From: Mayamaea pseudoterrestris
Taxonomy: Eukaryota
Reading direction: 5' to 3'
Assembly: GCA_027923505.1 (NCBI GenBank)
Contig: BROI01000004.1
Span: 868,001-932,000 of the forward strand
DNA: 64,000 nt
The notes below the pieces were generated by a model. That model was not told the origin of the DNA. It saw nothing but the letters and a program-made list of their open reading frames with translations, and made no database searches. Positions 1 through 54,328 of the stretch are shown in pieces (position 1 is the stretch's first letter; every line of letters begins with the position of its first letter). A program made the translations under genes and the position numbers.

Positions 1-1307
1 AAGAGGACCGTGTCACCAAGCTGAATCCATGTTGCCGCCGATGATCCTCCTCGAAAACTATAAGTGCCACCGGGAGAGTCTCTGGCACTCAAATACACCT
101 CGGTAATCAAGCGGGAGTTGCCGGTCAAGTCGTTGTCTTCGATCGGTTCATGTAAGAGTACCTTGCCCTTGGCTTCTAATGAATGCCCTGCGTCGGCTGG
201 CTGCGGGCAAAGGACCACAATGCCAGTGACCCCGCAAGCAACGGCATCGTGAAACTTGACGCTACCCTTTGGTTTCAACGAAACTCGGCGAGCACTTAAT
301 CGCCTTCGCCCATGTGGCTCACCTCCACCATTGGCTTCGTTAACGACGAGAAACTTCATTTCTTGACCTTCCTTGAGCACGAGGTCACCATCACCCAACG
401 CACGCTCCGTATCGTCCATGTCAATGGTCGAGTAGTGAAAATAGATTTCTTCACGTCGCTTGTTCGACAAGAGAAATCCATACTCGCCCTTGAGCGAGGT
501 GACGACTCCAACTTCTTCCGTCGCTTCAGCCAGCATTTTCGTCTCCTGCTCATGACGCACCCGGTCTCTTTCAGATAAAATCAAGCTTATGCTTCTAGCA
601 AATTGATTCTTGCTGCGCCGGTCTGTCACAATGCTAAACTCAACCAAGTCACCCTTGAGCAGTCGATTTGGCTGTCCCCTTCGACCGTCAGATATAATCT
701 TGGCGTCCTCGCCGTTCAATGGCTCTGGTTCGTCATGCTGCTGCGTTGGCTGATAGTCATTTTGACGAAAATATAACTCTGGTCCATCGGACACGATCGC
801 CGCGACGTCCTTTCCATCACGCTGGTCGTCGAGCAAGCGAATGGTGCCATCCAGCGTTTGGCCACGCTCAAACCGAGTCGGTCGATCCACCAATCCCCGA
901 AAAAGCTTTCCAGGTTCATTTTCCGTCTCCCATGCAATTGAGCCAGGCTCCAGTATCCGCACTTGGTAGGCATTAAGCTTGTCGTTGCGTGTTCCAATAC
1001 GAAACTCCACTTCGGCATCGAGTTGCAGTGAGTCTACTGGTTGCAGTGATTCCGAGTAGTGGAAAAATACTTCCTCCGGTCGATCAGCGCAGTAAATGAA
1101 ACCAAATGATTCCTTGAGACTACAAATGACGCCTTGCTCCAATGGCAATTGCGAGTGATCGGGTGCTTGACGCTGTTGTCTGCCTCCGCGATTGTTGTTG
1201 CTGCGACTGCCGCCGTCGCGATTATTGTAGCTGCGATCTCTATTGTTTCCTCCTTGATTATCAAAATATGACGATTGTCGCGACGAGTTGTTACTGTAGC
1301 TTGTCAT
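1..1307 (-). CDS. CSDE1: Cold-shock domain-containing protein, CSDE1/UNR-like (5' part; runs off the window start)
   Basis: Manual translation; missing from the ORF track because there is no stop in the window. ATG at 1307 gives MTSYSNNSSRQ..., with tandem CSD motifs LEQGVICSLKESFGFIYCADRPEEVFFHYS and EVGVVTSLKGEYGFLLSNKRREEIYFHYS, plus UNR-type linkers LLKGDLVEFSI and RVSLKPKGSVKF. The frame is open to the window edge. Confidence 0.85.
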   Translation of the reverse strand, partial: MTSYSNNSSRQSSYFDNQGGNNRDRSYNNRDGGSRSNNNRGGRQQRQAPDHSQLPLEQGVICSLKESFGFIYCADRPEEVFFHYSESLQPVDSLQLDAEVEFRIGTRNDKLNAYQVRILEPGSIAWETENEPGKLFRGLVDRPTRFERGQTLDGTIRLLDDQRDGKDVAAIVSDGPELYFRQNDYQPTQQHDEPEPLNGEDAKIISDGRRGQPNRLLKGDLVEFSIVTDRRSKNQFARSISLILSERDRVRHEQETKMLAEATEEVGVVTSLKGEYGFLLSNKRREEIYFHYSTIDMDDTERALGDGDLVLKEGQEMKFLVVNEANGGGEPHGRRRLSARRVSLKPKGSVKFHDAVACGVTGIVVLCPQPADAGHSLEAKGKVLLHEPIEDNDLTGNSRLITEVYLSARDSPGGTYSFRGGSSAATWIQLGDTVL

Positions 1308-1724
1308 GTTTGGTCGATGAATGAGGCGTAAAAATATTCAGTCTTTCGAACAAGAAACTTGCGAAAGATTTGGGTGTGTATTACTTGGCTCCTCTAGTAT
1401 CTACCCCGAGAGCAAGTTTGCAATAGCTTAGAATCCGCTCAGAGACACAATTGCTTGACAATCTCCGACTCCCAATCGATGCCGATTGATGAATCGAGAG
1501 TTGTGAAAGGATGCAGCAGCAGTTTCGCTTTTGCTTTCCATGGCGCGCGCTTGGCTCATGATCATAAGTCTGGCCGTCTATCGTCCGTGAGTACCGGTAC
1601 GTCGTCCGTTGCTACCGTTCCCAGTCCCGCTACGACAGCATACGATCGCCGAAACGACGACCGCGAACCTCGCTCCGACGAACCTCAGCCTCCAACAAAC
1701 AACAAACATCGGCACTGCCCGACC

Positions 1725-2907
1725 ATGGGCGTTAACCACCGCAAACGAAGACGGACATGGTCTTCTGCCATTGCATGTTGTTACACTACAATATATTCAT
1801 CCTGGACGACAATTATAGTTCACGCAAGCAGCGACTCGACTGTAACGAAAGGCTCGCTTGACGTTCAATCAACATGCAACGCTAATAAAGTCAAAGTCCG
1901 CAAGTTTATACTTCTTTGTGACAGTCCGGGAGCATATTACTATGGGAGTAATACATATCGAAACTCTCGAGTCTGCATGTCAAATGACAAGGCGAACATT
2001 CAAATAAACTGTGAGTAGTGCATGAGCTGTTGGATGGATGATGTAGAAATCGGCAATGAGAATTATCTAGCTCACTCTAGTACCACCATCTTCTTTCGTT
2101 TGCGAATGTCTACATTCATCATATTCTGGTGCTGTATTGTTTCGCCAATTTATATGAAACGATTCACAATTAACAGTTACAATTTCAGAACGCTACAAGG
2201 GCAACGGCAATGTCCGTGTCACCCTACAGGCCGGCATTTACAATACATACACCACTATTCTCGATAATGTTCGTGTTTGTCAGCTCGGAGTAGCCGGGGA
2301 TAATGCGTATAAATGCCCGAAACCTGGCGACTATGTGCTCAAAACATACTTTTACGTGCCAGCAATTCGCGATTACGATTTTCACTATACACCCGATGTC
2401 AAGCTCACCTTTATGGATGGCGACGGCCAAGACGACAGTATACTAGGATGCTCCGCCACTGGAACCATGGCACTGCACACACGGGCCACGCGCAAGGCGC
2501 AAAGAGGACTGCTCGCACTGGGCTTGTGTACGTTTAGTTTTTTGCTGGTCTTTGGTGGTTTGCTGTGTGCAAGCTATCGACGAAAGAAAGAGATTCAAAA
2601 ATACTTGCATGAGCTCAAGACGAGCCGATACTATATTCAGACCATGCCGAATGGTAATGTTGTGGTGAATGATACGGACGAAGAATATGAGGAGCAGCAA
2701 ACTGGACTGCCCCACTCATCCGTTCGATTAAAAGCAAATGAGCATAGCAGCCAGTATCATGGCAACCTGCAACACCAACTACACGATCAAACGCCGACAA
2801 ACATGGCGGCATTGCATTATGATACTGACGACGATGCTCGACGAATGCTTGACATTCGCAACCCAATCCACAACGAGTCGCAAGTTCCGATGCGTCCGGT
2901 CATATAG
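1725..2907 (+). CDS. Hypothetical single-pass membrane protein with a Cys-containing, ML-like luminal domain; exons 1725-2010 and 2177-2907 (338 aa)
   Basis: A GTGAGT...AACAG intron (2011-2176) joins ORFs 1455-2018 and 2335-2907 in frame. The protein has an N-terminal hydrophobic stretch, LCDSPGAYYYGS...C and CPKPGDY motifs, and a TM helix (LLALGLCTFSFLLVFGGLLCA) followed by RRKK. Confidence 0.7.
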
Positions 2908-3046
2908 CACAAACTTGACTACATGGTATCGCTACATCCATAAATATTGTAAATAGAAGAAGATGCTGCCGGCTTTTGGTTGTTCATATCGTTAAATTGG
3001 CCTTTTCCAAGCTACTTTTGTCAGCTCGTTACAACTTGCAACACCC

Positions 3047-3661
3047 TTACTTTTTCGCACTAATCATTAGCATTTGCATTTGCTGTATCAAATTGGCTGC
3101 CTGTATATATGACTCAAGCGCCTGTTTAGCTTGCGCTTGGGCAGCGAAAAGGTCTCGGGGTGGGAGTGCTCCTCCCAACAGCTGCAATGGATCTGGAATT
3201 GACGAGGCTGCTGGAGTGTCGTCTACCGGTAGTAACTCTTCCTTAGTCATGGATGGCTTGGTTTCGTCATTCTTTGTCGAGTAATCCGACTTTGAGTGGC
3301 GATTGCGTAATCCAGTCGTGTTCTCGTTGTCGCCAATAGCTGCCGTGGAAGTTGCACTCGGAATAGTAGGTGTTGCTGCAGCATTTTCCTTTTCCAGTGG
3401 GTCCTTCTGAGTGACATTTATCAAGGAAAATTGCTCTTGCACCAAGCATGGTTCCTCCTTCAATGATTCTTTCATACGCAGAATGGGTTCAAGGTCCAGG
3501 CGAACATCGGAGGCTCCAATCCCCGGCTTTTCGCGTCGGGCTTTGGTCAAACTCCACATGGAAGCCTTTAGTGAAGCGTTTCCTTGCAATTGAGCAGATT
3601 GGTACGCATCCAGCAATAGAAGAGTATCAAGCGTAGGAGTAGCAGTACTGCTAGGAGACAT
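3047..3661 (-). CDS. CCDC115: V-ATPase assembly factor Vma22/CCDC115-like
   Basis: N-terminal LLDAYQ...LKASMWSLTKARR and C-terminal DPLQLLGGALPPRDLFAAQAQAKQALESYIQAAN resemble the two conserved blocks of Vma22/CCDC115 (LAKARY; DPLxWFGxLVPxxLRxAQ). Start placed at ATG 3661. Confidence 0.65.
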   Translation of the reverse strand: MSPSSTATPTLDTLLLLDAYQSAQLQGNASLKASMWSLTKARREKPGIGASDVRLDLEPILRMKESLKEEPCLVQEQFSLINVTQKDPLEKENAAATPTIPSATSTAAIGDNENTTGLRNRHSKSDYSTKNDETKPSMTKEELLPVDDTPAASSIPDPLQLLGGALPPRDLFAAQAQAKQALESYIQAANLIQQMQMLMISAKK

Positions 3662-3898
3662 GAAGGTGGAGCAATAGAGTAAAACAGGCTGCGTGGATCG
3701 TCCTAAACAATGCAATGAGCGGCTCTGGTCGTACTTGTATCGCCATGGCGCATCCAACGACGCATTTTTGGTACCGGTACGATGCTTGTTCGGCCAGTAC
3801 CGATGCGAGGGATGGAATCTCGCGATCGACGACCATGGTGCTTTTGGCCTCTCATCGGCTCACAACAGTCGGCTCCAACGCGACCTTCTACTTTTGCC

Positions 3899-8100: not shown

Positions 8101-11100
8101 ACGACGATTTTCCGGTGTTAAATGCCGTTATTGAAGCTCTTTGGCGAATAAGCCTCGTAGTGGCTGATGACAATGTCGCAGCATTGGCTATGAAGGATTT
8201 GCTCAATATGCACGTTGCTACCGCCTCCCCTGAGACGAGCTCGTCCTGGAATGTTTCGTTTAATAATCGGTTTGACGATTTTCGCGATCGAGTTATCAAA
8301 TGCTTCACGATGGTAGAGCGAGAAATAAATTTAAGCTCACGCACTGCAAAACGGACAACAGAGCGCTGCCTTCGGATTGTGAACGCTTCTATTGGGCAGA
8401 GTGGATTTGATGATGTTTCTGTATGCTCATCAACGCTGACTCGATTACAAGGGTTGGCTTTTAACGCGACCCTCGATGATGTTTCAAGGATCATTCCACA
8501 TGGTATGCGAGGGCAGGGCAGTTACCGACGAGTAGGCATTAAGGCCAATCAGGCCAAATGTACATTGTCGCAGAACCAGCTTGAAGCCGACCAGACTGCG
8601 AGACCGAGTAATGTAAAATTTGCGCTCGATCTTCATCCTCTGGAAACACTTGAATCTGTGAAGATAAAGATTGCAACGCACTGTCAATGTCCAATTTCTT
8701 TCGTCAAGCCAATCCAGGTCGACGGCCGAGCAGCTCGTCAGATTGGATTTGATTCCTCTCAAACCTACAGTTCAAATCTAAATATGATGCCTGAAGATAC
8801 GTCTGTGGATGAAATTGGTATCGTTGACGGGTGCGAGCTTGTGGTGGTAATTGTCGAGCCGCGGCAGCTGAGCAGTGTTTCCTCGACGCCAACACTCGCG
8901 ACTCGCGGCGACAAATGGCATGACCTGAGCGATGTTTTCTTTGAGCATAATGGCGAATTTTCGGATCGACTGTTCGGCGTTTTAATGAATGTGCTTAAGC
9001 TAATGTCTTGGAAAGATACGACAAACGGGGAAACCGAAGCTTTGCAGTCTGTTGACACCCATCAATTGGTTTGGGAATTTCTTCTAGCGGCGCCCACCAA
9101 CAGTGTAATATGTGCGCAAGTCAAATCAGCCGCTGCCTCTGGTGACGCTCTGGCGTCAATAGGGACGGACACGATACCTGACGAAAATAATGGAGTGGCT
9201 TGGTCGTATCTCTTGGACTTTGCCGATTTCGACCGTTCAGTTTATGTTCTGTTGACCATCGATGCTCTGTTACGTCCGGCAGGTGAATCGATATCGATTT
9301 TGCGGCCACCTCAACGGGAACAATTCATGCTTGGAATGGAATCGGAGGCTGCAGAGTTTCGAGCCTCTTTCATAAAGGCTGGCGGCTTCCAGCATGTCAC
9401 GCGGTTTTTTTCTGCTGCTGGGGCTGCCGATAAGTCGCGTCGTGGCAAGACGCGCAGAGGAAATGCTGTCGCTTTGCGAATTTTGAAGTCGTGTTTATTT
9501 GGAGACGCTGCTACTTTGGATGGTTTGCACGAAGACTCACTCGACAACAATGGCCGCCAGCTCTTGGAGACGCTAGTTGATGCGCAAGGCTTGCTAACAA
9601 GCTTGTTGGCAATGGTGGTCGACGATGCTGGTATATCCTCTTCTGTTATTGCGGACGTTATCCGGTTTTTGATGCTTGTGTTTCAGTCTTCAAGCTCATC
9701 TGCAAGCGTTGAAGCACTTTCTGGGAAAATGTGGGAAGCTTTTATCATTAAATCGTTGACGCACGAGGTAGTTTCTGATAATGCGTGCTCCAGCTCGATA
9801 ATGAATGCAGCTATGCGCGTGCGGCGAAGCGCGCGTGACCTCATCCTGCAAACAACGCAACTCGCCGATAATGCTGTGCCTTGGCTCACTAAGGCGGTTG
9901 CGAATATTGATGTTGGATCTGAGTGTTCCGAAGAATGCTTTGACGTCCTCGGAAAATTAATAAGTGGGGGCGATTTCAGCGGCAACCGCTTGCTATCTTC
10001 AAATGAAGATGACTTTGCTAACCTTGCAGCGGTCGTTTGTCGGAAGCTCGTTGAATGTCCAAGGCCTCGAAGTGAAAGCGAAGCACTCGAGGTTTCTACT
10101 AGCGTACTCTGTGGCTGCCTGAAATTGCTTCGAGCTCTTGTGGAACGCGGCAGAGCTCATGCCCTCGCTTCTGGAGTGGCGTGTCTTCTTGCTGCTTGCA
10201 GTGTTCCGGGATGGTATAATAGAGCCGAGGCGGACGCAGACGAACACTATATAAATTTGATGGGTGTCATGTTTGATGCATTTCTTTCGCCTGTTGGCAC
10301 TTCGTCAGTCGCTGTGTGCTGCGATAAAGAATCAAGGAGACTTGGTTTTGACATCGTCGAAGCGGCTGCCAGAGCTTGCTCGGGGGACGAAGGTTACAAC
10401 CGACTGATGTTGCATATTAATTCACTTATAGCAGTCGCAGCTCCAAAATTGAAACACCGTTGGGGCCAGTATGGGGCGAGCAGTCATGAGCTGAACATAA
10501 GAACACGATGCGCATCCAAATACTCTGGTCTGAAGAATGCTGGTTGTACGTGCTACATGAATTCGGTTTTGCAACAGCTATTTATGATGTCGGACATCCG
10601 CGAATCTTTATGCTCTGTTCCCTTGCCGTCGGCTCTCCGAACATCCGGTGATGCTTTGCCTAAAGGATTTGAGCTGGTCGGCAAGACGATTTCATTGCAT
10701 TGGGAGACGGGTGCTTCTTATGAAGCGATGGTCGAAGCTTTTGACGAATCGACTGGGACTCATTGTATTCGATATTGTCCTATCAAGCGCGCACTGGCGG
10801 ATCCTAAAGTTGATGACGACGTTGCGAAACTACCCCGCAATCTTTTTGAAGAATTTGTTTTATCTGAAGGACGAACAGGGAAAGAAACTGGAGTATATCA
10901 AATTGTCGTGGAAAGCACAGAAATGGAAGCGGAGACGTGTGCCGATCAGACGATTTTAGCTGCCAACGATGAACTTGTTGAAACCGACGACGAACGTGCT
11001 TCTCGTCGCCTGCTGGAAGAAGTTCAAAGGACATTTATTCATCTCGATGAAGGTGCTCGCGGGAGACATTTTGATCCGAAAGCGCTCGTTGAAGCATGTA

Positions 11101-14100
11101 CCTGTTTGAAACTCGAGTTTGATGTATGGCAGCAGAACGATGCTTCCGAGTTTACGACTAAGCTTCTCGACCGGCTTGAAGTGTCGCTCAGGAAATGGGC
11201 ACCCGCACATTTTCGATATCTGGACCACATGTTTGGAATTAAACAGATTAAGCAGAAGATCTGCCGAGAATGTGGTTTGAAGTCGAACCGCGAAGAGAAA
11301 CTATTGAACATCGACTGCCAGATTCGAGGAAAGACAGACATTCAGGAGGCCCTGGCTACGTTTACGGAGACGGAAATTATGGAAGGTAGCAATCAAGTCT
11401 TCTGCGAAAGCTGCGACAAGAATACAGATGTAAGTTACACAATACCAGAATTATGTCATCTCCTATGTATACTGACCGCGTATCATTCTTTCGATAGACT
11501 ATTTTGCGTACTGCCCTATCAACGCTACCAAATGTGCTCATACTGTCTTTGAAACGATTTGATCTGGACTTTACAACTTTTGAGACAGTAAAATTGAACA
11601 GTCGGTGCGCTTTTGGGCAGACTTTAAACATGAAACAATTTACACTCGAAGGAATTGAGGCCAAGGAGAAGGAAGTTGCCGCTGCCGACAACGTGTTAGA
11701 CACCAGCGACACTGAAAAGCAACGCAGCGAGAGTAATGAAAATGATGAGATGAGCTCTGACGTCAAAGATTATGAGTATCGCCTCGCTGGTGTCCTTGTT
11801 CATGCCGGAGTGGCACAAGGAGGTCACTACTATAGCTTTATTCGAGAAAGGAACGAGGGAGCCGATGACAAATGGTATCGTTTTGACGACGAAGACGTTA
11901 CACCATTTGATCCTGCCAATATTGAAACGGAGTGCTTTGGAGGGCGAGTGAAAAAGGAGACGAAGTGGCCGAATGGGCAAGTTCATACAGTCGAGCAAGA
12001 GCAATTTGCAAATGCGTTAATGCTTTTCTATGAGAAGGTTGAGCCGTTAAAAGTTCCCGCTGATGCATTGGAAAGATCGCAAAATGTGGACTGCATCAGG
12101 TCCTCGGGATACGACGTTTTCAAAGATGATGTGCTCCAGTCAAATGCTGCTCATAGATGGCAAGCCTTTCTATTTGACTCCGAATTCCAACTTTTTTTGA
12201 AACGACTGCTCGGGCATTGCGCGGTACCAAGTCCTCGTGGGGTTTCGCCACAGGTATGGCGTGAGCCGCTACTCCTTATGCTCCTTGAATATTTCTTTGA
12301 TGTAATGCCTTACTCTGTCGATCGCGGCTGTGTTCACGATTGGGTGAATACACTGGAACAAGCACTGTACATAGACGCCAGGAGCGCTCGACGGTTCGTT
12401 CATATTCTTGCCAAGAAGACGAGCCAAATATCGTCCAACTGGTACCGAACCTTTTTGGTCGAGTGTCCGGACCAAGCTGCAAGAAGTGGAGCTGTCCGCG
12501 TCTTTGGTGCCGGTATTCGTTCCTGCTTATCTTTTAACGACGAGCAGCGTGAGCTGGCAGCATGGGTGGATGCATGGTCGCAACAATCGCAGTCATTACA
12601 GTTAAATGGCCCGATACCTATCCCTGCCATTCTCACTGAGCGATGGGCTGCTCATGAAGATATTGAAACATTAGAACGCGGCGGTTCATCTAGTGTGGGG
12701 ATATTAATTTCTTCGCTCAATGTCTTCTTAGATGTGTTGCCTCGATGCTGGCGCATGAATTCGGAGCTTTTCTTGTTGATTCGTCAACTGGCTGTTATGC
12801 AAATTGAACAAGTCTCCATTCTACGTAAATCGCTTATAGCAGCTCTGATCCCCATGCGCTTGCTTGGCATCATCTTACGTGACCGGCTCCAACCTATTGA
12901 TTTACAGGATGCATTTCCAGGTGCTTGCGTTTCATTGGAGACTGCGAACTCACAGACTCGTCCAGAATCAGGCCATGGCCATAGTATTTCGATGACCGGA
13001 AATCACATGAATTCGAACGACAGTGGTCGTGGTCCTAATATAGACTACTTGGTTCTTTTTGAATGTTTGTCCTGCATTGCTTCCCTACCAGGCGCAGTCA
13101 AGGCAATTCTTGTAGTTGATTCGGGCGAATTGATACGAGGCCGTCGACGCTATATTCTAACGGACGCAGCAGTTCAGGCGCTCACTGCTGTTTTTCACGA
13201 GCACTGCCCACAGGGATCGTCTGGCATGGCTCGACGCGATTTGGAAGCTTATTTGAGTCAATGCGGCGCCGAGACAGTCCACACCATAAATCAGAGGGTC
13301 TCTGACATGATGAAACGGTCTGCGATCGACGACACGGCGCACGGCCCAAAGTACCTGACTCTAACCGGATTCCTCGCGTACTATCGCGATGTAGTACAAA
13401 ACGACGATTCGCAGTTGCGAACGGATCTGCATTTTTTAGGATTTCGACCGGATTTGTCACGCCGCTCTTTCGTTTCGAGAAAATTGCTGCGAGATGGTCG
13501 GACTTCGTATCGGGAACCCGCCGAAAGTATCGCCATTGATGTTGGCGAATTTTTTTGCGATTCGTCAGCCAGCTTGGGTGTTATGGCTGACTTGGTCATG
13601 GGGTACACGTTATGGCTCTATGATCTTGCTTTTAGAGTATCTGAAGTACATGCACTCTATCTTCTTGCTGCCGTGACATACCAACGTGACATAAGTGACT
13701 TGCTGAATCGGATACTGCAATCAATTTCAACGAATGCAGCAGATTGGCCAGGTAACGAGAGAGTTAGCATCATGACACAGGCTTTAAAGTGTGTTGCTGC
13801 TGTCCAAGACCGGAACCAAAATAGGAATATTTTTATCATCATGGAGTCGCAATGGCGGCCAGGGAGTGCTGACAACGAAGTGGGTCTGCTACCGATGTTG
13901 CGCAACGTGAAGAGGGCTTTAGGCTCGAATCCATATAGTCAGGAACTTCAATGGATCCGTAGTCGTTATATTGCAATTCTGAGAAATCTGCTCAAGTCAG
14001 CATGTATTCTGCAATGGATGCAATTGAATAAGTCAAATTGGGCGTTCGTCGAACGTGATTTGACCGACGACCGGGTGATTACCCACCAGGTGCGCGACGA

Positions 14101-49377: not shown

Positions 49378-51042
49378 TCAAGGTGACTGCATGCGACGTT
49401 TCTTGCTGCTTCCTGCCGTTTGGTTGCCAAGCGCCGTATCGACGAGTTTTTCGTCGTGGACTCCATAGGTCGTCATCTCGGGATGAGTCGCTGCAAACGC
49501 ACTTCTTGTCGAACCCGGCGTCACGCTAGGAATCAAGTCGTAGTATCCGCTGGAAGCTGGAGTGTCACATGGCGTGGATCCATCCTCAGTCGGGACACGC
49601 GGAGTTCGAAGACCACCTAATTTTGAAGCCCCGCCATGGCCGCGCAAATAAGAATCAAAGTCCGAAAGTGGCAAAGGACTAACCATGTCACGGCGAGCGG
49701 CAGATGCGCTCTTGCTAAGCCCACTGTTCTTCTTGCGGCCAATCTTGACAGTCACAGTTGCTCCCACAACGTCGCCGTCCACACCGCCGTGAACATTATC
49801 ATAGTCATCATCTTGCTTGACAATGGCGAGTTCAATCGAACGTCGATTGTGCAAACCCATGCCTGCAAGATGCACACTGACCCAGCCATTCGACCACTTT
49901 TCGACAATGCCTTGTTGATGCTTCATGGGGCCTGCCAGGATGGACACGAGCTTGCCGCGCCACTGATCAGAGGGAATCATGCTGAGCAAAAAGTACGGCG
50001 ACTCGGCGTGCGTTTCAGCCAACTTGCTGGCCCGACGGCCGCGTGGCGTTTTGGTGAGCAGCTCCGCACTGGTCAATGGCGATGGAACGAGCTTGGACGA
50101 CGCCAACGTGGCAGCCTTGTCCGTGTTGGAATGTTGCAGCTGCGACAAAGGCCACTGTTGTTGCTTTTCCTTGGAGTTGGCTGCCTTGCTGCGTCGGGCA
50201 AACGACGTTTCGCCGCTCACTCGCTGTACGCCAACACCATGACTCACAGCAGTCGTTGAAGAGTGCAAGTTGCAGAAACTTGTCCCTTCGACTGCCACAT
50301 AGGCGCAGGAGCGTCCGCGCGTCGTGGTAGCCTTGCAGCAAACTTGGTGCAAAAGGCCCGTGAATCGCTTGTCCTGGCGATGCATATTGGCGGCGCTTGA
50401 CGTGTTTGTTTCCTCTGCTGGTTCCGCCAATCGCGGCGCACCCCCGACTTGAGTCTGATGCATCTTGCAGTAAACTTGACCCTTGGGACAGTACCGACGG
50501 CAGGGTGCATTGTTGCGAGCCATGCTGCCCCGACACACCCCCGTGGTTTCCTCCGAGCATCCAGCGACCGACTCGCTACTACTGCCCAAGGTTGACAGGT
50601 CGGATGGCGATTCCTCATCTGCTGCTGCGGCAGCATCAATGGTAAGATCAATGTCTGTATTTTTGAGCGTTGGAGGAACATGCGCAAACGACCGCGCGTG
50701 GAGCGATAACAGTGACAGCTTGGCATCATGTTCCTGCTCAATCCGAGGCAAGAGCGGCAGTAACGTCTGCGGAACTCGCGCGTAGTAGCGATAATGATCA
50801 TCCAAGCGCGACGGTACTGTCGAAGCAGTAGTGGTAGCTGGAGAACCGGATGACGCAGCCTGAATGAGGGCGAGAGCGGCCAAGGTTTCGTCGGCGCTTG
50901 GAATTGACTCATTTTTGTGCCATGCGGGTGAAACTCCTGCTGCTGCGAGTGAGGAGTGCGAGGTGATTCGCTTCTTCAATGGCAGCGATCCTCGACGATG
51001 GTGCAGCTGACGCTCGGGAAGGACAATAGCTCGGATATCCAT
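49378..51042 (-). CDS. Hypothetical nuclear regulator with two CCCH-type zinc-binding repeats and a KOW/SH3-like module (554 aa)
   Basis: CRGSMARNNAPCRRYCPKGQVYCKMH and CKATTTRGRSCAYVAVEGTSFCNLH. WRGKLVSILAGPMKHQQGIVEKWSNGWVSV is KOW-like. Basic motifs LPLKKR and KKRR. Confidence 0.7.
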   Translation of the reverse strand: MDIRAIVLPERQLHHRRGSLPLKKRITSHSSLAAAGVSPAWHKNESIPSADETLAALALIQAASSGSPATTTASTVPSRLDDHYRYYARVPQTLLPLLPRIEQEHDAKLSLLSLHARSFAHVPPTLKNTDIDLTIDAAAAADEESPSDLSTLGSSSESVAGCSEETTGVCRGSMARNNAPCRRYCPKGQVYCKMHQTQVGGAPRLAEPAEETNTSSAANMHRQDKRFTGLLHQVCCKATTTRGRSCAYVAVEGTSFCNLHSSTTAVSHGVGVQRVSGETSFARRSKAANSKEKQQQWPLSQLQHSNTDKAATLASSKLVPSPLTSAELLTKTPRGRRASKLAETHAESPYFLLSMIPSDQWRGKLVSILAGPMKHQQGIVEKWSNGWVSVHLAGMGLHNRRSIELAIVKQDDDYDNVHGGVDGDVVGATVTVKIGRKKNSGLSKSASAARRDMVSPLPLSDFDSYLRGHGGASKLGGLRTPRVPTEDGSTPCDTPASSGYYDLIPSVTPGSTRSAFAATHPEMTTYGVHDEKLVDTALGNQTAGSSKKRRMQSP

Positions 51043-51948
51043 GTTGTTGGTAGAATGGTTGCTTGGAGTAGGCGGGCAAAATGAGAATGGCAAGGAATGG
51101 AGCTGAATCTCGTCGTTGAATATTGACTGTCAATATGCAATCCAAGCAAGCTGTAGCAGCAACAAAATGAGGCAGCTGCGACAAGACTAATGGAGCGTTC
51201 AATGCGTTGACAGACAGTGGTGCAGTCTTACGCCGTCGTCGGTTGAGCTCCTTCACTGCAAAAGCTGGGAGCTTGATGCGCGTGTATGTGGAAGTGAGCG
51301 TGCGTTTTAGTCTCCGCAAAGATTCGAATGATGTAATGGACGAAGGAGGAAACGGATGCTTTGAGTAATGTAGAGCGAGATAATCTTTCTGTAGGATAGC
51401 AAGACGAAGTGAGCCAAGACAATAATTTGAGGTGGCAGGCAACCCTGGATACGGTGCAGCGGTCAATGAGCCTCCCGTTCGCTCTCAAGGCTTTCCAATT
51501 CCATTTGTTCCGTCAAAACCAAGCAAGGTGCGCCGTACATTTTTACAATGCGTTCTCTCTCATGCCGTTCATGCAAGTCTAAGTCGTCAAGCACTTACCA
51601 CTGACTGATTGGAGAGGACAAAGGACAATGCATACGTAACCTTTCAACTGCTGCATAACTGCGTGCAGTCAAAATCAACCAAGCAGCAGCGAGCAGTGAT
51701 GGGAAAAGGATCAAGCATCTCCGGTCACGCATCACGTGTCTGCACGCGGCGGAAAGTGGAATCGCTCCCATTGGCTGCTTGGAAACGAGCGATCCATGAC
51801 GTCGATGCTGCATCCACCGGATACGTTCTTGTCGTAGCGTTACACATGACGTCATTTTTTGTCGTAGCGCAACTCCTTCAGCACTCGCCTCGCCACCATG
51901 GCGTTCATCCTCAAAACGAGTCATTCATTTCGCTCCATCATTTCCACC

Positions 51949-53142
51949 ATGTCCGACTCTAGCGGCTCTGAATCACTTCCACTTCCCAATGGATGGAGCA
52001 AGGGATTTTCCAAGTCGCAGAATCGTCCATTCTACTTTCATGAAGCGACAAAGACGACGCAGTGGCACTTTCCGACGGCTTCCGAAGCGCTCGATCCTAG
52101 TAAAGCCAAGCAGCGCGTCCAAGCGAACATTGAACGAGAGGAAAGCAAGAGAAAACAGCAAGGAAACAATAATAGTCATGATGGAAAGCGACTGCGCGTT
52201 GAAACTAGCGGTGACTCTTCGTTGTTTGATCTCGCCGATAAAACCAACGTTGCAATCATTGTCCCTTTTCGAGACTTGCATACAGAGCAAAAGCGGTCGG
52301 CACACTTGAAACAATTCGTTCCACACATGCATTCATTCTTGGCAAAACTTAAAGCATCTGGCAAAGTCTCCAACTATCACATTTACATCATTGAACAATC
52401 CGACGATCAACGCAAATTCAATCGAGGCAAGCTCCTCAACATTGGTTTTGATTTGGCGCGCAAGGCGCAGCGCAAGCACGACGTTTTCATTTTTCACGAC
52501 GTTGACTTGTTGCCGCAAAATGACTTGCTCGTTTGGTACAGCAAGTTTCCAGTCAAGCCGCTACACATTGCTCGCGTCTGGGATCGCTACTCGAACAATC
52601 CAAAATACTTTGGAGGCGTCGTTAGCTTTTCGGCGAGTGACTACAAGCGAATCAACGGATATCCCAATACTGTGAGTATACGAGTGATGGCTTGTCGTTT
52701 TGTGACTACAGGCAGCAGTAATCAATCATGTCACGTCGAAATTTAAGGTACTCACAGCAATTGCAATCTACCACGTTTGACATGACCACAGTTTTGGGGC
52801 TGGGGCGGCGAGGACGATGAAATGCAGCGACGACTCGAGCGGCTGGGCATTCAGTTTGACATGCCTGACAAGGGCACGCTTGTCGACTTGGAGCAAATGG
52901 ATTTGACGCAAAAGCTGGCCTTTTTGCGCGAGCACAAGTCGTGGAAGTGCATGGTCAAGTGGGAGGCGGCCGATGAGCACGCCGCAACGTGGAAGACGAA
53001 TGGTTTAGCGGATCTTCAGTATCAGCTACTGGAAACAAGGCCGTTGAATGAGCAAAAAACTGCCACCATGTATATGGTTGATGTGCAACTCAATGGCACT
53101 CATTGGGCGAACGACAAGGCTGGAGTTGACTGGGTGGGGTAG
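51949..53142 (+). CDS. WW domain - glycosyltransferase family 7 (beta-1,4-galactosyltransferase-like) fusion; exons 51949-52671 and 52792-53142 (357 aa)
   Basis: WW: LPNGWSKGFSKSQNRPFYFHEATKTTQWHFP. GT7: VAIIVPFRD, FNRGKLLNIGF, FHDVDLLP, YFGGV, INGYPNTFWGWGGEDDE, NGLADLQY. GTGAGT...CAG intron at 52672-52791. Confidence 0.92.
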
Positions 53143-53313
53143 GCGGGCGCCGAATGGATCACTGAAACACTACTAATAGATGCGAGGGCTGTTTTGTCGC
53201 CAAAGGCGTTTGATGCACAAAGCCACATTTTTTGTACTGAATCAATAGTATTGTAAAATAATGCTATGTGTTGAAATTACTGCTCGAAAACTAATATTGT
53301 ACTTGATCCGTGT

Positions 53314-53329
53314 GCCATTGAGAAATGGC
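53314..53329 (-). promoter_or_regulatory. Histone 3' UTR stem-loop of H2A.X (GCCATT-TCTC-AATGGC)
   Basis: 6-bp stem and 4-nt pyrimidine loop about 36 nt after the stop codon, flanked by AACC and ACAC. Same element as in H2B. Confidence 0.8.
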
Positions 53330-53365
53330 GGTTATTTATTATGTTTTGGTCGTCTCTTGATGAGC

Positions 53366-53938
53366 TTAGTAGTCCTGCGACTGACTCTTGCCACCCTTTG
53401 CTCCAGCAATGGCCTTTCCAGTGCTCTTAGGCAACAAGATTTGGTGAATACTAGGGAGCACTCCACCCGATGCAATGGTTACGCTGCCGAGGAGCTTGTT
53501 GAGCTCCTCGTCGTTCTTGATCGCCAATGTTAGGTGGCGGGGAACGATGCGTGACTTCTTGTTGTCGCGAGCGGCGTTGCCAGCAAGCTCCAGGATCTCG
53601 GCGCACAAGTACTCGAGGACAGCAGCGAGGTAGACGGGAGCGCCAGCACCCATGCGGGTGGCGTACTTGCCCTGGCGCAAGTAGCGGCCGATACGACCGA
53701 CGGGGAACTGCAATCCTGCCTTGCTTGACGAAGTCGTCGACTTCTTCTCTCCACGGCCTCCCTTGCCCTTTCCCTTGCCTCCGGTAGTTGCTGCTGTATC
53801 AAGAGGAAGACGTAAATGGTAAGATATTCTGTTCGGTGTCAAGCGCTCGCGTATTTTTGTCGACTTGTCGTTCGACTCAATCATTCACTTGGATAAACTC
53901 GTTCCTTCATTCAGACATCACTTACCCTTTCCGCTCAT
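53366..53938 (-). CDS. H2AX: Histone H2A.X; exons 53938-53926 and 53793-53366 (146 aa)
   Basis: [10 protein letters not shown]...[15 protein letters not shown]...NDEELNKLL...GGVLP core; C-terminal SQSQDY (SQ[D/E]-aromatic); GTAAGT...CAG intron after MSGK. Confidence 0.95.
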
Positions 53939-54328
53939 GTTGATAGTGGTTTCGTAGTTGGTGAGTGTGTAATCGTTTGCGTCTGCGATGCTTTTTGTGA
54001 GAGAATCCCATGTTGGAGAGGATGGACGAGGCCGAAACCTTCAGGACTACTTTAGCTTCTCGGGTTCGAAACGGACGAGCCAAAAGCCGACTTACTTAAG
54101 CCCAGCTCCCATGCGAGCGAGCCAGGATCTTGAAACGTTCGAAATCAATGACATTCTTTAGCCTTTTATCTGAAAGTAAGTGGGTTTTGTACCATGATCC
54201 ATTGGTAAGTTTTGCACGTAGAAATCTGTTCGTCGTGACATTTCGACCTTACCCACAAAAAGCAGCAGCATCCAAGCCTCTTCGCATCCTCTCATCCAAC
54301 TACCAAAACAAACCACCAACTCGCAACC

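Follow-up and report, generated by a model that had tools for sequence, protein, structure and literature searches.

Background

The animal beta-1,4-galactosyltransferases of family GT7 (B4GALT1-7) are Golgi type II membrane proteins. To our knowledge, all characterised GT7 enzymes use sugar acceptors, and a ribose acceptor would be unprecedented. The WW domains of Pin1 and Ess1 belong to group IV, which binds phospho-Ser/Thr-Pro; the phosphate-binding residues in loop 1 of Pin1 are a Ser-Arg pair. PCIF1/CAPAM is a cap-specific adenosine N6-methyltransferase with an N-terminal WW domain that binds the phosphorylated C-terminal domain (CTD) of RNA polymerase II (Pol II). There are also cytosolic RNA glycosyltransferases, of families other than GT7, that make galactosyl- and mannosyl-queuosine in tRNA.

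Here we describe a gene of Mayamaea pseudoterrestris that joins a WW domain to a GT7 domain. It lies in a window of 64,000 nucleotides (contig BROI01000004.1, positions 868,001 to 932,000), and all coordinates below are those of the window. We found no published description of the WW-GT7 architecture or of a GT7-capping enzyme fusion in the literature and, as far as our literature search reached, no glycosylated mRNA cap in print. The available portions of a giant-virus glycan review, a protist glycosylation review, and a paper on GT-A evolution do not mention the WW-GT7 architecture.

Gene structure

The gene has two exons on the plus strand and encodes a protein of 357 amino acids, with a WW domain, a basic linker, and a complete GT7 domain. 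Exon 1 (51949..52671, 241 amino acids) holds the start codon, the WW domain, the linker, and the first two thirds of GT7, and is colinear with homologues. The intron (52672..52791) is 120 nt long, has GT..AG ends, and contains an in-frame stop. Exon 2 (52792..53142, 116 amino acids and the stop codon) encodes the catalytic loop and the C-terminal third of GT7. Positions 52671 and 52792 are joined exactly in one assembled contig each of the public runs X3 and X4 (there are four public runs from one study, of a kind not stated, and from X3 and X4 we used only the bridging of introns). The join (YPNT/FWGWGG) is colinear with 13 full-length homologues. A second in-frame ATG at 51898 would add 17 residues, and the start codon at 51949 is therefore not certain.

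The initial annotation had proposed a spliced WW-GT7 protein here, which the gene model, Pfam, the motifs, and the intron-skipping contigs confirm. The predicted architecture is far beyond chance at this locus. It is conserved: precomputed Pfam annotation finds WW together with GT7 in 114 of the 120 best near-length homologues, and the same architecture occurs in a brown alga and a xanthophyte.

GT7 catalytic domain

The GT7 domain (52249..53139, plus strand, interrupted by the intron) has a GT-A fold of the B4GALT1/B4GALT7 type according to Pfam, sequence searches of the PDB, and Foldseek. Glyco_transf_7N matches amino acids 78-195 (E 1e-23, 84 bits against a cut-off of 27). The Glyco_transf_7C match is split across the exons, with E 7.5e-8 and 2.3e-7 (32.3 and 30.8 bits against a cut-off of 23). 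The metal and UDP-sugar binding motif DxD is FHDVD (52492..52506), which aligns to the DVD of bovine B4GALT1. The catalytic loop WGWGGEDDE (52795..52821) includes the Asp equivalent to the catalytic base of B4GALT1. Pfam and the B4GALT1 alignment thus bear out the annotation of a complete domain with both motifs intact.

Structure comparisons used a model of the homologue P0004, which is 72% identical to the window protein (pLDDT 91.6, pTM 0.81). The best Foldseek matches are B4GALT1 (E 2.5e-20) and B4GALT7 (TM 0.75-0.80), and alignment to these two enzymes gives target-normalised TM values of 0.73-0.80 with 27-34% identity over about 250 columns. Past the catalytic loop, exon 2 aligns to them too weakly (E 0.003-0.01) for the C-terminal metal ligand to be placed. 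On the donor side, the Arg of FNR and the Tyr before FGG are kept, which makes GalNAc a less likely donor than Gal or Glc. Of the Gal/GalNAc-type donor suggested earlier, we retain Gal (or Glc) and consider GalNAc less likely.

The clade to which the protein belongs (see below) has its own conserved residues: H209, W214, R216, Y217, Y223, D276, E278, K285, K296, K300, E302, H307, and W311 (P0004 numbering). Both Asp residues of DxD are 100% conserved in all four architecture groups and the WGWGGEDDE loop is at least 93% conserved across them. The two motifs and the clade-specific residues reach at least 94% in three of the groups (diatom WW, cap-fused, and helicase-fused). Among the 14 WW representatives from outside the diatoms, H307 is kept in 71% and W311 in 50%, and the remaining residues in at least 92%. 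The predicted active site is the same across all architecture types.

WW domain

The WW domain (51982..52074, plus strand, amino acids 12-42) covers model positions 1-31 of 31 in Pfam (E 9e-10, 38.8 bits against a cut-off of 26.9), and in the predicted P0004 model the region has three strands at residues 15-37. It has the long loop 1 of the Pin1/Ess1 type (S-x-S-Q-x-R). It aligns without gaps to the domains of Pin1, Ess1, and PCIF1, whereas a one-residue deletion is needed against NEDD4, WWP1, Itch, and YAP. The best single-domain match is Pin1 (29 bits with the single sequence and 36-40 bits with a profile, gapless); the best NEDD4-type domain scores at most 27.5 bits and requires the deletion. 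The PCIF1 domain scores 27 bits without gaps in single-sequence alignment and falls outside the 60 best PDB matches when the family profile is the query.

The two Trp residues are spaced by 22 residues, as in Pin1, in 119 of 121 family members, and every one of these 119 has Trp16, Ser21, and Trp39. The counterpart of Pin1 Ser16 is always Ser, and the aromatic residue and the second Trp are likewise retained. At the position of Pin1 Arg17 the window protein has Lys, and among the 119 members the commonest residues are N (59), K (46), and R (9). We assign the domain to the Pin1/Ess1 type by its loop length and its best single-domain score, in agreement with the Pin1-like WW domain that had been suggested.

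The WW domain is followed by a conserved segment that is predicted to be helical (TASEAxDPxKAKxR..., 52075..52146, plus strand). The columns P41, T42, E45, P49, K53, and R55 are nearly invariant, and the P0004 model has helices at 43-47 and 49-72, with mean pLDDT of 88-93 for 10-residue blocks over residues 31-70.

Basic linker and absence of a membrane anchor

The basic linker (52147..52200, plus strand) contains KRKQQ (52147-52161) and GKRLRV (52183-52200), a KRxR-type arrangement that resembles a nuclear localisation signal of the classical kind. The linker is otherwise variable, and the motif K[KR]x[KR] is kept in 114 of 116 homologues, in support of a putative localisation signal.

We found no hydrophobic anchor in the window protein (highest Kyte-Doolittle mean over 19 residues 0.71 in exon 1 and 0.14 in exon 2). 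The 17 residues gained from the ATG at 51898 have a 19-residue mean of about 0.6 (summed by hand), too low for a membrane segment. In 119 proteins that start with Met (the window protein and near-length homologues), the WW domain mostly begins at residues 9-13, and the MMETSP entries marked complete that we examined start just ahead of it without an anchor. Among the 120 near-length homologues, an N-terminal hydrophobic 19-mer occurs only in P0006 (1.65), where it appears to be 5' read-through. Any hydrophobic 19-residue segment is found in two of 111 long relatives and in 15 of 150 clade representatives, with an anchor-like placement N-terminal to GT7 in four of those 15 (P0142, P0187, P0220, and P0251).

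Upstream, a divergent neighbour has an exon on the minus strand (51599..51667), about 280 nt from the WW-GT7 gene and spliced across 51389-51598. High-depth X3 and X4 contigs have loose ends at 51599 and 51613, and the loose letters match 51373-51389, with GT..AG on the minus strand. There is therefore no room for an upstream anchor exon of the WW-GT7 gene. Hydropathy, the complete transcripts of relatives, and this neighbouring exon all agree with the earlier statement that the protein has no anchor, and we predict a soluble enzyme.

Distribution of the clade

The protein is part of a large GT7 clade, almost entirely anchorless, with members in giant viruses and in ochrophyte algae, oomycetes, and further marine protists. 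A metagenome scan with P0001 found 47 loci; a scan with P0004 returned no relative among 593 pattern matches (a poly-Asn run made up one of the six patterns). In the GT7 tree, which is star-like, support is below 80% for 51 of 93 inner branches. It is too unresolved for counting fusions or naming the sister of the diatom proteins, so we argue for several fusions from domain orders.

Fusions to cap enzymes and other partners

Many members of the clade are fused to enzymes that form or modify the mRNA cap. In the 150 best clade representatives, 12 contain PF01331, PF03291, or PF12237, two more contain SNF2 or Helicase_C, and one contains RNA_pol_L. The best 120 of 293 long relatives, counted by hand, include 90 with a cap enzyme (guanylyltransferase, cap N7-methyltransferase, or PCIF1-type methyltransferase), 20 with a helicase, six with another partner, and four with GT7 only. 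The 90 are not independent events, because each hit stands for a cluster at 90% identity and related giant viruses contribute many of them. The fused proteins come from contigs of giant viruses and from marine stramenopiles and oomycetes.

The domains follow one another in at least four orders: GT7-guanylyltransferase-N7-methyltransferase, guanylyltransferase-N7-methyltransferase-GT7, N7-methyltransferase-GT7, and WW-PCIF1-N7-methyltransferase-GT7. The gap between the N7-methyltransferase and GT7 is about 0-3 residues in P0137, P0184, P0231, P0291, and P0293. In two viral contigs from IMG/VR the fusion is a single uninterrupted open reading frame (1564 and 1636 amino acids), and several other hits are labelled GVMAG.

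PF12237, the PCIF1 catalytic domain, was found only in the fused relatives P0137, P0291, P0293, and P0232 and is absent from the window protein. P0137, P0291, and P0293 combine a PCIF1-type domain, a cap N7-methyltransferase, and GT7 of this clade in one protein. Pfam detects an N-terminal WW domain in P0291 and P0293, and P0137 has a WW-like region by eye only. Eukaryote proteome sets, one of them labelled MAST-4 stramenopile, contain members of P0137 and P0291. Both are absent from IMG/VR, where P0137 gave two weak matches to its methyltransferase part only; from the proteome-set labels we take P0137 to be probably cellular.

Fusions to DEAD-box helicases occur in named oomycetes. These oomycete proteins are gene models, in which neighbouring genes could have been merged.

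The clade is also fused to GT90, GT61, GT17, GH125, fucosidase, and O-methyltransferase domains. Tandem GT7 copies or fusions to glycan-related domains occur in P0227, P0189, P0197, P0201, and P0223. Anchorless GT90-GT7 proteins include P0288 of the diatom Seminavis, which has an RGG-rich N-terminus, and viral-type proteins, one of which (P0269) also contains a capping enzyme. Partners that build or trim glycans are easier to reconcile with a sugar or a protein as acceptor than with RNA.

In the viral structure library the top match is an 805 amino acid putative beta-1,4-galactosyltransferase of an Aureococcus virus, which by description is like AaV_274. According to a proteomics study, AaV_274 (annotated as a putative beta-1,4-galactosyltransferase) is found in virions together with RNA polymerase subunits, a capping enzyme, and helicases; its authors suggest a capsid-glycan role for the packaged enzyme.

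Genomic neighbourhood

An H2A.X gene (53366..53940, minus strand) lies convergent with the WW-GT7 gene. It has one short 5' intron, the Pfam domains Histone and Histone_H2A_C, and the C-terminus SQSQDY. The initial annotation regarded this adjacency as a possible coincidence, which is not borne out: an H2A gene adjoins the corresponding gene in 5 of 20 informative related contigs, and the adjacency is probably not due to chance, given this recurrence. An H2A.X-type end (SQ[DE][YF]) is visible in four of the five linked H2A genes. Neither H2B nor any other window open reading frame of at least 70 amino acids (from 40000-64000) was found in the related loci. The recurrent linkage to H2A.X points towards chromatin rather than RNA.

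Predicted function

We tentatively favour, at somewhat less than even probability, a nuclear hexosyltransferase that is coupled to Pol II and capping and possibly acts on the cap itself. The protein is predicted to be a soluble, inverting, metal-dependent UDP-hexose glycosyltransferase with the GT7 (beta-1,4-galactosyltransferase) fold. It may enter the nucleus, where the WW domain would dock on phospho-Ser/Thr-Pro of the Pol II tail or of a partner protein, as in PCIF1. The catalytic domain would then pass a hexose, with UDP-Gal as the probable donor of Gal, to an acceptor that is available when the cap is made. Recruitment to the transcription machinery, at first a guess from the WW domain, gains support from the fusions to guanylyltransferase, N7-methyltransferase, PCIF1-type methyltransferase (with its own N-terminal WW domain), helicases, and a polymerase subunit. 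The cap-enzyme fusions of the clade point to a putative, as yet undescribed sugar modification made during transcription. The virion packaging reported for AaV_274, in company with polymerase subunits, a capping enzyme, and helicases, would be in keeping with this reading. What weighs against it are the glycan-related fusions, the sugar acceptors of characterised GT7 enzymes, the lack of a glycosylated cap in the literature that we searched, the Asn at the Pin1 Arg17 position in 59 of 119 members, the PCIF1 domain's rank beyond the 60 best profile matches, the non-independence of the cap-fused relatives, the poorly supported tree, the H2A.X linkage, and the possible merging of genes in the oomycete models.

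As acceptor we favour a hydroxyl group on the ribose of the cap guanosine or of the first nucleotides transcribed, since GT7 sits immediately next to the cap N7-methyltransferase in many fusions. It is possible, if doubtful, that the clade glycosylates the mRNA 5' cap in this way, with a hexose on the ribose of the cap guanosine or first nucleotide. Giant viruses and some protists would have this activity within the capping enzyme itself; in ochrophytes, diatoms among them, a Pin1/PCIF1-type WW domain on the phosphorylated Pol II tail would deliver the enzyme to nascent transcripts.

A protein acceptor (the CTD or chromatin) is nearly as likely. The same soluble nuclear enzyme might act on a capping factor, on the tail of Pol II, or on a histone, for which H2A.X is a candidate, with the sugar placed directly on Ser/Thr or on a priming Xyl, Glc, or GlcNAc (made, for example, by GT90). 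This has parallels in B4GALT7, which extends Xyl-O-Ser, and B4GALT1, which extends GlcNAc, and is consistent with the sugar acceptors of known GT7 enzymes, the anchorless GT90-GT7 proteins (Seminavis P0288 and the viral-type ones, including P0269), the binding of proteins by WW domains, and the position of H2A.X beside the gene in the window and in related contigs. The reported packaging of the Aureococcus virus GT7 protein in virions would also fit. However, the commonest fusion partners, by a wide margin, work on the RNA 5' end, and GT7 lies directly against the cap N7-methyltransferase. Gene adjacency in eukaryotes seldom reports a substrate, and giant-virus RNA polymerases generally lack the heptad tail.

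It is unlikely that the protein is a cytosolic glycosyltransferase for a soluble or storage glycan, a glycolipid, or a small-molecule glycoside, with the WW domain as a tether to a proline-rich partner and the viral fusions as co-packaging or genome compaction. The GT61, GT17, GH125, fucosidase, and O-methyltransferase fusions, the tandem GT7 copies, and the capsid-glycan role suggested in the Aureococcus virus study would agree with such an enzyme. A KRxR motif kept in an otherwise variable linker and a WW domain of the Pin1/Ess1 type argue against it, as do cap-enzyme, PCIF1, and helicase partners that recur in several domain orders in cellular eukaryotes and viruses with an identical active site throughout all architectures.

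An ordinary Golgi type II enzyme with a signal anchor missed by the gene model, as established for animal B4GALT1-7 and allowed for by the in-frame ATG at 51898, is highly improbable, since the extra residues are not hydrophobic, homologues and complete MMETSP entries start just before the WW domain, the minus-strand exon lies close upstream, and we know of no WW domain from the secretory lumen.

Implications

What appears to be new is a large anchorless GT7 clade that is often fused to mRNA-cap enzymes. A family known from textbooks as Golgi enzymes contains a whole clade that is predicted to be soluble and is linked by fusion to capping, PCIF1-type methylation, helicases, and a polymerase subunit. 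Its members occur in ecologically dominant algae (diatoms and brown algae), in oomycetes, some of them plant pathogens, in marine protists not yet cultured, and in giant viruses. With the cap as acceptor, mRNA would gain a further layer of chemistry: a cap modification of a new class and a new form of RNA glycosylation, which would bear on translation, on decapping, and on how virus and host are told apart. With a protein as acceptor, the clade would stand for a new system of glycosylation in the nucleus and cytoplasm, coupled to transcription or chromatin. The idea of nuclear glycosylation becomes concretely and cheaply testable.

Comparison with known systems

The WW-GT7 protein has in common with B4GALT1 and B4GALT7 the catalytic fold, the DxD motif, the WGWGGEDD loop, the Arg of FNR, and the Tyr before FGG. 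The animal Golgi enzymes B4GALT1-7 have a signal anchor and a stem (type II topology), whereas the WW-GT7 protein has neither and carries a WW domain and basic linker in their place. It also differs from B4GALT1 and B4GALT7 in the clade residues W214, R216, Y217, K296, K300, and E302 and in the DLE motif (P0004 numbering), and the fusion partners of its clade are nuclear or RNA enzymes.

The layout is like that of PCIF1/CAPAM, in which the catalytic domain also comes after a WW domain at the N-terminus, but the PCIF1 catalytic domain (PF12237) is absent. Pin1 and Ess1 have an isomerase domain, and there is none in the WW-GT7 protein. The queuosine glycosyltransferases are a precedent for soluble enzymes with an RNA nucleoside as acceptor, although they target the side chain of a tRNA base and not the cap.

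The GT7 domains of metagenomic giant-virus capping enzymes (for example L001, L006, P0159, and P0152) are 41-55% identical to the P0004 domain. They belong to the same clade as the WW-GT7 protein and have the same conserved residues. In these viral proteins GT7 is covalently linked to guanylyltransferase and N7-methyltransferase and there is no WW domain, whereas in the WW-GT7 protein the WW domain would supply the link to capping non-covalently.

Fusion of the GT7 clade to mRNA-cap enzymes

The main new result of this analysis is the fusion of the GT7 clade to mRNA-cap enzymes. A profile built from a family alignment (A1) was searched against 1.84 billion representatives and matched 7609 proteins at E<=1e-3, of which 613 reach E<=1e-30. 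Among the best 150 of the 7609, 149 have a GT7 domain by Pfam, and the partner domains include WW (28 proteins), mRNA-cap domains (12; P0137, P0152, P0159, P0180, P0184, P0226, P0231, P0232, P0235, P0238, P0248, and P0269), SNF2 or Helicase_C (P0146 and P0173), and RNA_pol_L (P0239); several have thioredoxin, GT90, fucosidase, O-methyltransferase, and others, including one GT61/GT17/GH125 multi-enzyme. P0004, a homologue 72% identical to exon 1 of the WW-GT7 gene, had 293 matches at E<=1e-10 among longer proteins. We counted the best 120 of these by hand from the Pfam column: 90 carry a cap-enzyme family (PF01331, PF03291, or PF12237), 20 carry helicase domains, six have other partners (three GT90, Arm/Cnd1, Sel1, and DUF3431 with WW), and four have GT7 only; these are not counts of independent events because the entries are 90%-identity clusters, many of them related.

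The cap fusions come in at least four domain orders. The GT7 domain precedes the cap guanylyltransferase (GTase) and the guanine-N7 methyltransferase (N7MT) in P0159 and P0180, follows both in P0152, P0235, P0248, and P0269 (ahead of a methyltransferase or GT90), and follows N7MT in P0184, P0226, P0231, and P0238. P0291 and P0293 have the order WW-PCIF1-N7MT-GT7, with or without a further methyltransferase; P0137 has this order too, but its N-terminal segment is WW-like only by eye. The gap between N7MT and GT7 is 0-3 residues in five fusion proteins. Judged from these domain annotations, the clade as a whole is fused to machinery predicted to act on nascent mRNA at its 5′ end.

Proteins of the P0159 type occur at 18 loci on IMG/VR giant-virus contigs; five match from about residue 1-81 on, GT7 part included, and the others align to the capping enzyme alone. 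The GT7-capping fusion is a single uninterrupted ORF at viral loci L001 (1636 aa) and L006 (1564 aa). The L001 ORF is flanked by a SNF2-type helicase (79-3705) and by an ORF that weakly matches the small subunit of the poxvirus capping enzyme (10993-11961); P0146 is a direct fusion of a SNF2-type helicase with GT7. One viral-type protein joins a capping enzyme, N7-methyltransferase, GT7, and GT90. Some members of the P0137 and P0291 clusters come from eukaryote proteome sets, one with the label MAST-4 stramenopile, and P0137 was not found in IMG/VR. Annotations of Peronospora, Phytophthora, and Lagenidium contain DEAD-box helicase-GT7 fusions, which may be merged gene models.

In a viral structure library, the top match is annotated “putative beta-1,4 galactosyltransferase” (Aureococcus virus, 805 aa). 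According to a virion proteomics paper, AaV_274, a putative beta-1,4 galactosyltransferase, is present in virions together with polymerase subunits, a capping enzyme, and helicases, and its authors propose a capsid-glycan role. The two agree by description and may be the same protein.

We compared GT7 domains (hmmalign) from 65 diatom WW, 14 other WW, 92 cap-fused, and 17 helicase-fused proteins. The active site is the same in all four groups (DxD Asp residues 100%, WGWGGEDDE loop at least 93%), which argues for one chemistry common to all architectures. In P0004 numbering, H209, W214, R216, Y217, Y223, D276, E278, K285, K296, K300, E302, H307, and W311 are conserved at 94% or more in the cap-fused, helicase-fused, and diatom groups; H307 (71%) and W311 (50%) are weaker in the 14 non-diatom WW representatives. 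A tree of 96 GT7 domains is star-like (51 of 93 branches open), with the cap fusions dispersed among its branches (11 rows with 11 changes) and a well supported diatom clade (99).

Gene model and absence of a membrane anchor

The WW-GT7 gene (plus strand) encodes a 357-aa protein from two exons. The region was read and translated: exon 1 (51949-52671) encodes 241 aa, a 120-nt GT..AG intron with an in-frame stop follows (52672-52791), and exon 2 (52792-53142) encodes 116 aa plus the stop. Contigs from four public runs of one study (run kind unrecorded) were aligned to 51400-53400. One contig each of runs X3 and X4 skips exactly from 52671 to 52792, contigs of run X1 retain the intron, and overlapping contigs tile 51924-53067. 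Thirteen full-length homologues are colinear across the exon join, YPNT/FWGWGG. Another in-frame ATG (51898), with a strong CCACCATGG context, may be an alternative start to 51949; it adds 17 non-hydrophobic residues that are absent from the homologues.

Pfam places the WW domain at residues 12-42 (E 9.3e-10), exactly the span of the initial annotation (51982-52074), Glyco_transf_7N at residues 78-195 (E 9.6e-24), and Glyco_transf_7C in both exons, split by the intron (E 7.5e-8 and 2.3e-7). The KRKQQ, GKRLRV, FHDVD, and WGWGGEDDE motifs reported earlier are all in place. In the homologue alignment and model, a conserved, predicted-helical segment directly follows the WW domain, and then a variable low-complexity linker with K[KR]x[KR] in 114 of 116 homologues, usually KRPR. 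This motif fits the consensus of a classical nuclear localisation signal.

No hydrophobic anchor was found in the window protein, as the initial annotation had read it: the Kyte-Doolittle average over 19 residues peaks at 0.71 in exon 1 and at 0.14 in exon 2, and the 17 residues from 51898 (mean about 0.6) add no membrane segment. Precomputed Pfam annotation gives WW with 7N, with or without 7C, in 114 of the best 120 near-length homologues (of 1089 matches), and the architecture also occurs in Nemacystus (brown alga) and Tribonema (xanthophyte). LPxGW is present in 119 of these 120, and in 119 Met-start proteins, counting the window protein, its start is mostly at residues 9-13; those MMETSP entries examined that are labelled “complete” likewise begin just ahead of the WW domain. 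Among the 120, an N-terminal hydrophobic 19-mer occurs only in P0006 (1.65), where it looks like 5′ read-through, and in five further homologues one falls at about residue 243-272, where genomic predictions have the intron. Hydrophobic 19-mers are found in 15 of the best 150 clade representatives, N-terminal to GT7 in only four, and in only two of 111 long relatives. By hydropathy, the clade is nearly anchor-free.

WW domain

The first 50 residues of the window protein were compared with PDB sequences. The WW domain aligns without gaps to Pin1 (e.g., 12-45 on 2-35, 29.2 bits), Ess1, and PCIF1 (13-44 on 12-43, 27.2 bits), whereas NEDD4L, WWP1, Itch, YAP, and Su(dx) require a one-residue deletion, and their best single domain reaches at most 23.5 bits; NEDD4L-type proteins rank higher overall only because the scores of several domains add up. 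A profile of 13 family WW domains (A3) aligns gaplessly to Pin1 at 36-40 bits, against at most 27.5 bits for the best NEDD4-type domain. The Trp-Trp spacing is 22 residues in 119 of 121 members. Given the gapless alignment, top single-domain score, and spacing, the domain is classed as Pin1/Ess1-like in length and best score. PCIF1 is not among the 60 PDB matches listed for the profile. Loop 1 of the family reads S-x-S-Q-x-[RK], with Ser21 invariant and R or K always at position 26. The position aligned with the phosphate-binding Arg of Pin1 is N in 59, K in 46, and R in 9 of 119 members, and phosphate binding is plausible.

Neighbouring genes

High-depth contigs of X3 and X4 cover 51599-51667, with loose ends at 51599 and 51613. 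The loose letters agree with 51373-51389, and the gap has GT..AG ends when read on the minus strand; we therefore place an exon of a divergent neighbour about 280 nt upstream of the WW-GT7 start codon. This gene (minus strand; ORF 49378-51129, intron 51389-51598, upstream exon 51599-51667) encodes a Ser/Ala-rich protein of 553-583 aa with Cys/His-rich repeats, and the ORF has no Pfam match. Its 5′ exon has a depth far above that of the WW-GT7 gene in both runs. The region between the genes (51720-51880) contains a CACGTG box (~51733), two TGACGTC(A/G) elements (~51790 and ~51848), and a direct repeat, TTGTCGTAGCG (~51829 and ~51859), possible promoter elements shared by both genes.

Downstream lies an H2A gene with an SQSQDY end (53366-53940, minus strand; Pfam and translation), and beyond it a divergent H2B gene. 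Among 47 metagenome loci with an exon-1 relative, 20 extend 800 bp or more beyond it on one side; an H2A gene lies within about 0.5-3.4 kb in five of the 20 (L022, L033, L045, L054, and L057), a raw count uncorrected for background synteny. The exon-1 proteins of these five, which represent distinct lineages, share 47-68% mutual identity. Four of the H2A genes finish with an H2A.X-type SQ[DE][YF], whereas the fifth gene is interrupted; L022 is convergent as in the window, and in the other four H2A.X is upstream in tandem. Neither H2B nor any other window ORF of at least 70 aa from 40000-64000 recurs in the related loci. The initial annotation had allowed that the H2A.X adjacency may be coincidental; from this recurrence, and even allowing that histones are far easier to detect than fast-evolving neighbours, chance seems unlikely.

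Predicted function

The predicted product is a soluble GT7 enzyme whose active site is intact and which also carries a WW domain of the Pin1/Ess1 type and a conserved basic motif. The protein would be imported into the nucleus, where the WW domain may dock on phospho-Ser-Pro of the Pol II tail, as that of PCIF1 does, or of a partner, and Gal or another hexose would be transferred at the capping step. We tentatively favour a nuclear, capping-coupled hexosyltransferase with a cap ribose hydroxyl as acceptor, because N7MT is the commonest and tightest partner and because an enzyme with several domains usually carries out consecutive reactions on a single substrate.

A protein acceptor within the same complexes is only a little less likely. 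Known GT7 enzymes take sugars as acceptors, which is in its favour, as are the anchorless GT90-GT7 fusions (P0288, P0289, P0379, P0205, P0261, and P0269), which suggest a two-sugar product; P0288 (Seminavis robusta, 1192 aa) is a diatom paralogue with a 66% identical GT7 part and an RGG-rich N-terminus. The H2A.X linkage also favours it and is the main observation for a chromatin-side reading. A generic role in cytosolic glycan synthesis appears improbable. A Golgi anchor missed by the gene model is very improbable, the divergent neighbour's exon leaving no room for an upstream anchor exon.

Database names for WW-GT7 relatives are “WW domain-containing protein” or “galactosyl transferase”. Searches of openly accessible full-text literature found no description of the WW-GT7 architecture, GT7-capping fusions, or a glycosylated cap. 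We rate the protein as a GT7 enzyme that would work in a new compartment and in a functional association new for GT7; cap glycosylation, if true, would be categorically new.

Comparison with B4GALT1

The nearest solved proteins by sequence are B4GALT1 (E 1e-18 with exon 1; 4e-29 with P0004) and B4GALT7. An AlphaFold2 model of P0004 (360 aa; 105-row family alignment A2) has pLDDT 91.6 and pTM 0.81. Foldseek places B4GALT1 first (E 2.5e-20, TM 0.73) and B4GALT7 next (TM 0.75-0.80), with other GT-A folds far below. In an alignment with bovine B4GALT1, its DVD motif, the Arg of FNR, the Tyr preceding FGG, and the WGWGGEDD loop each have a counterpart. We take these to be D252/D254, R228, Y289, and W314/D318, a numbering that is self-consistent along the alignment. 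Our best guess is a Gal-type donor, since the FNR Arg and the Tyr before FGG are both kept; in B4GALT1, according to a published study, the substitution R228K changes the donor from Gal to Glc.
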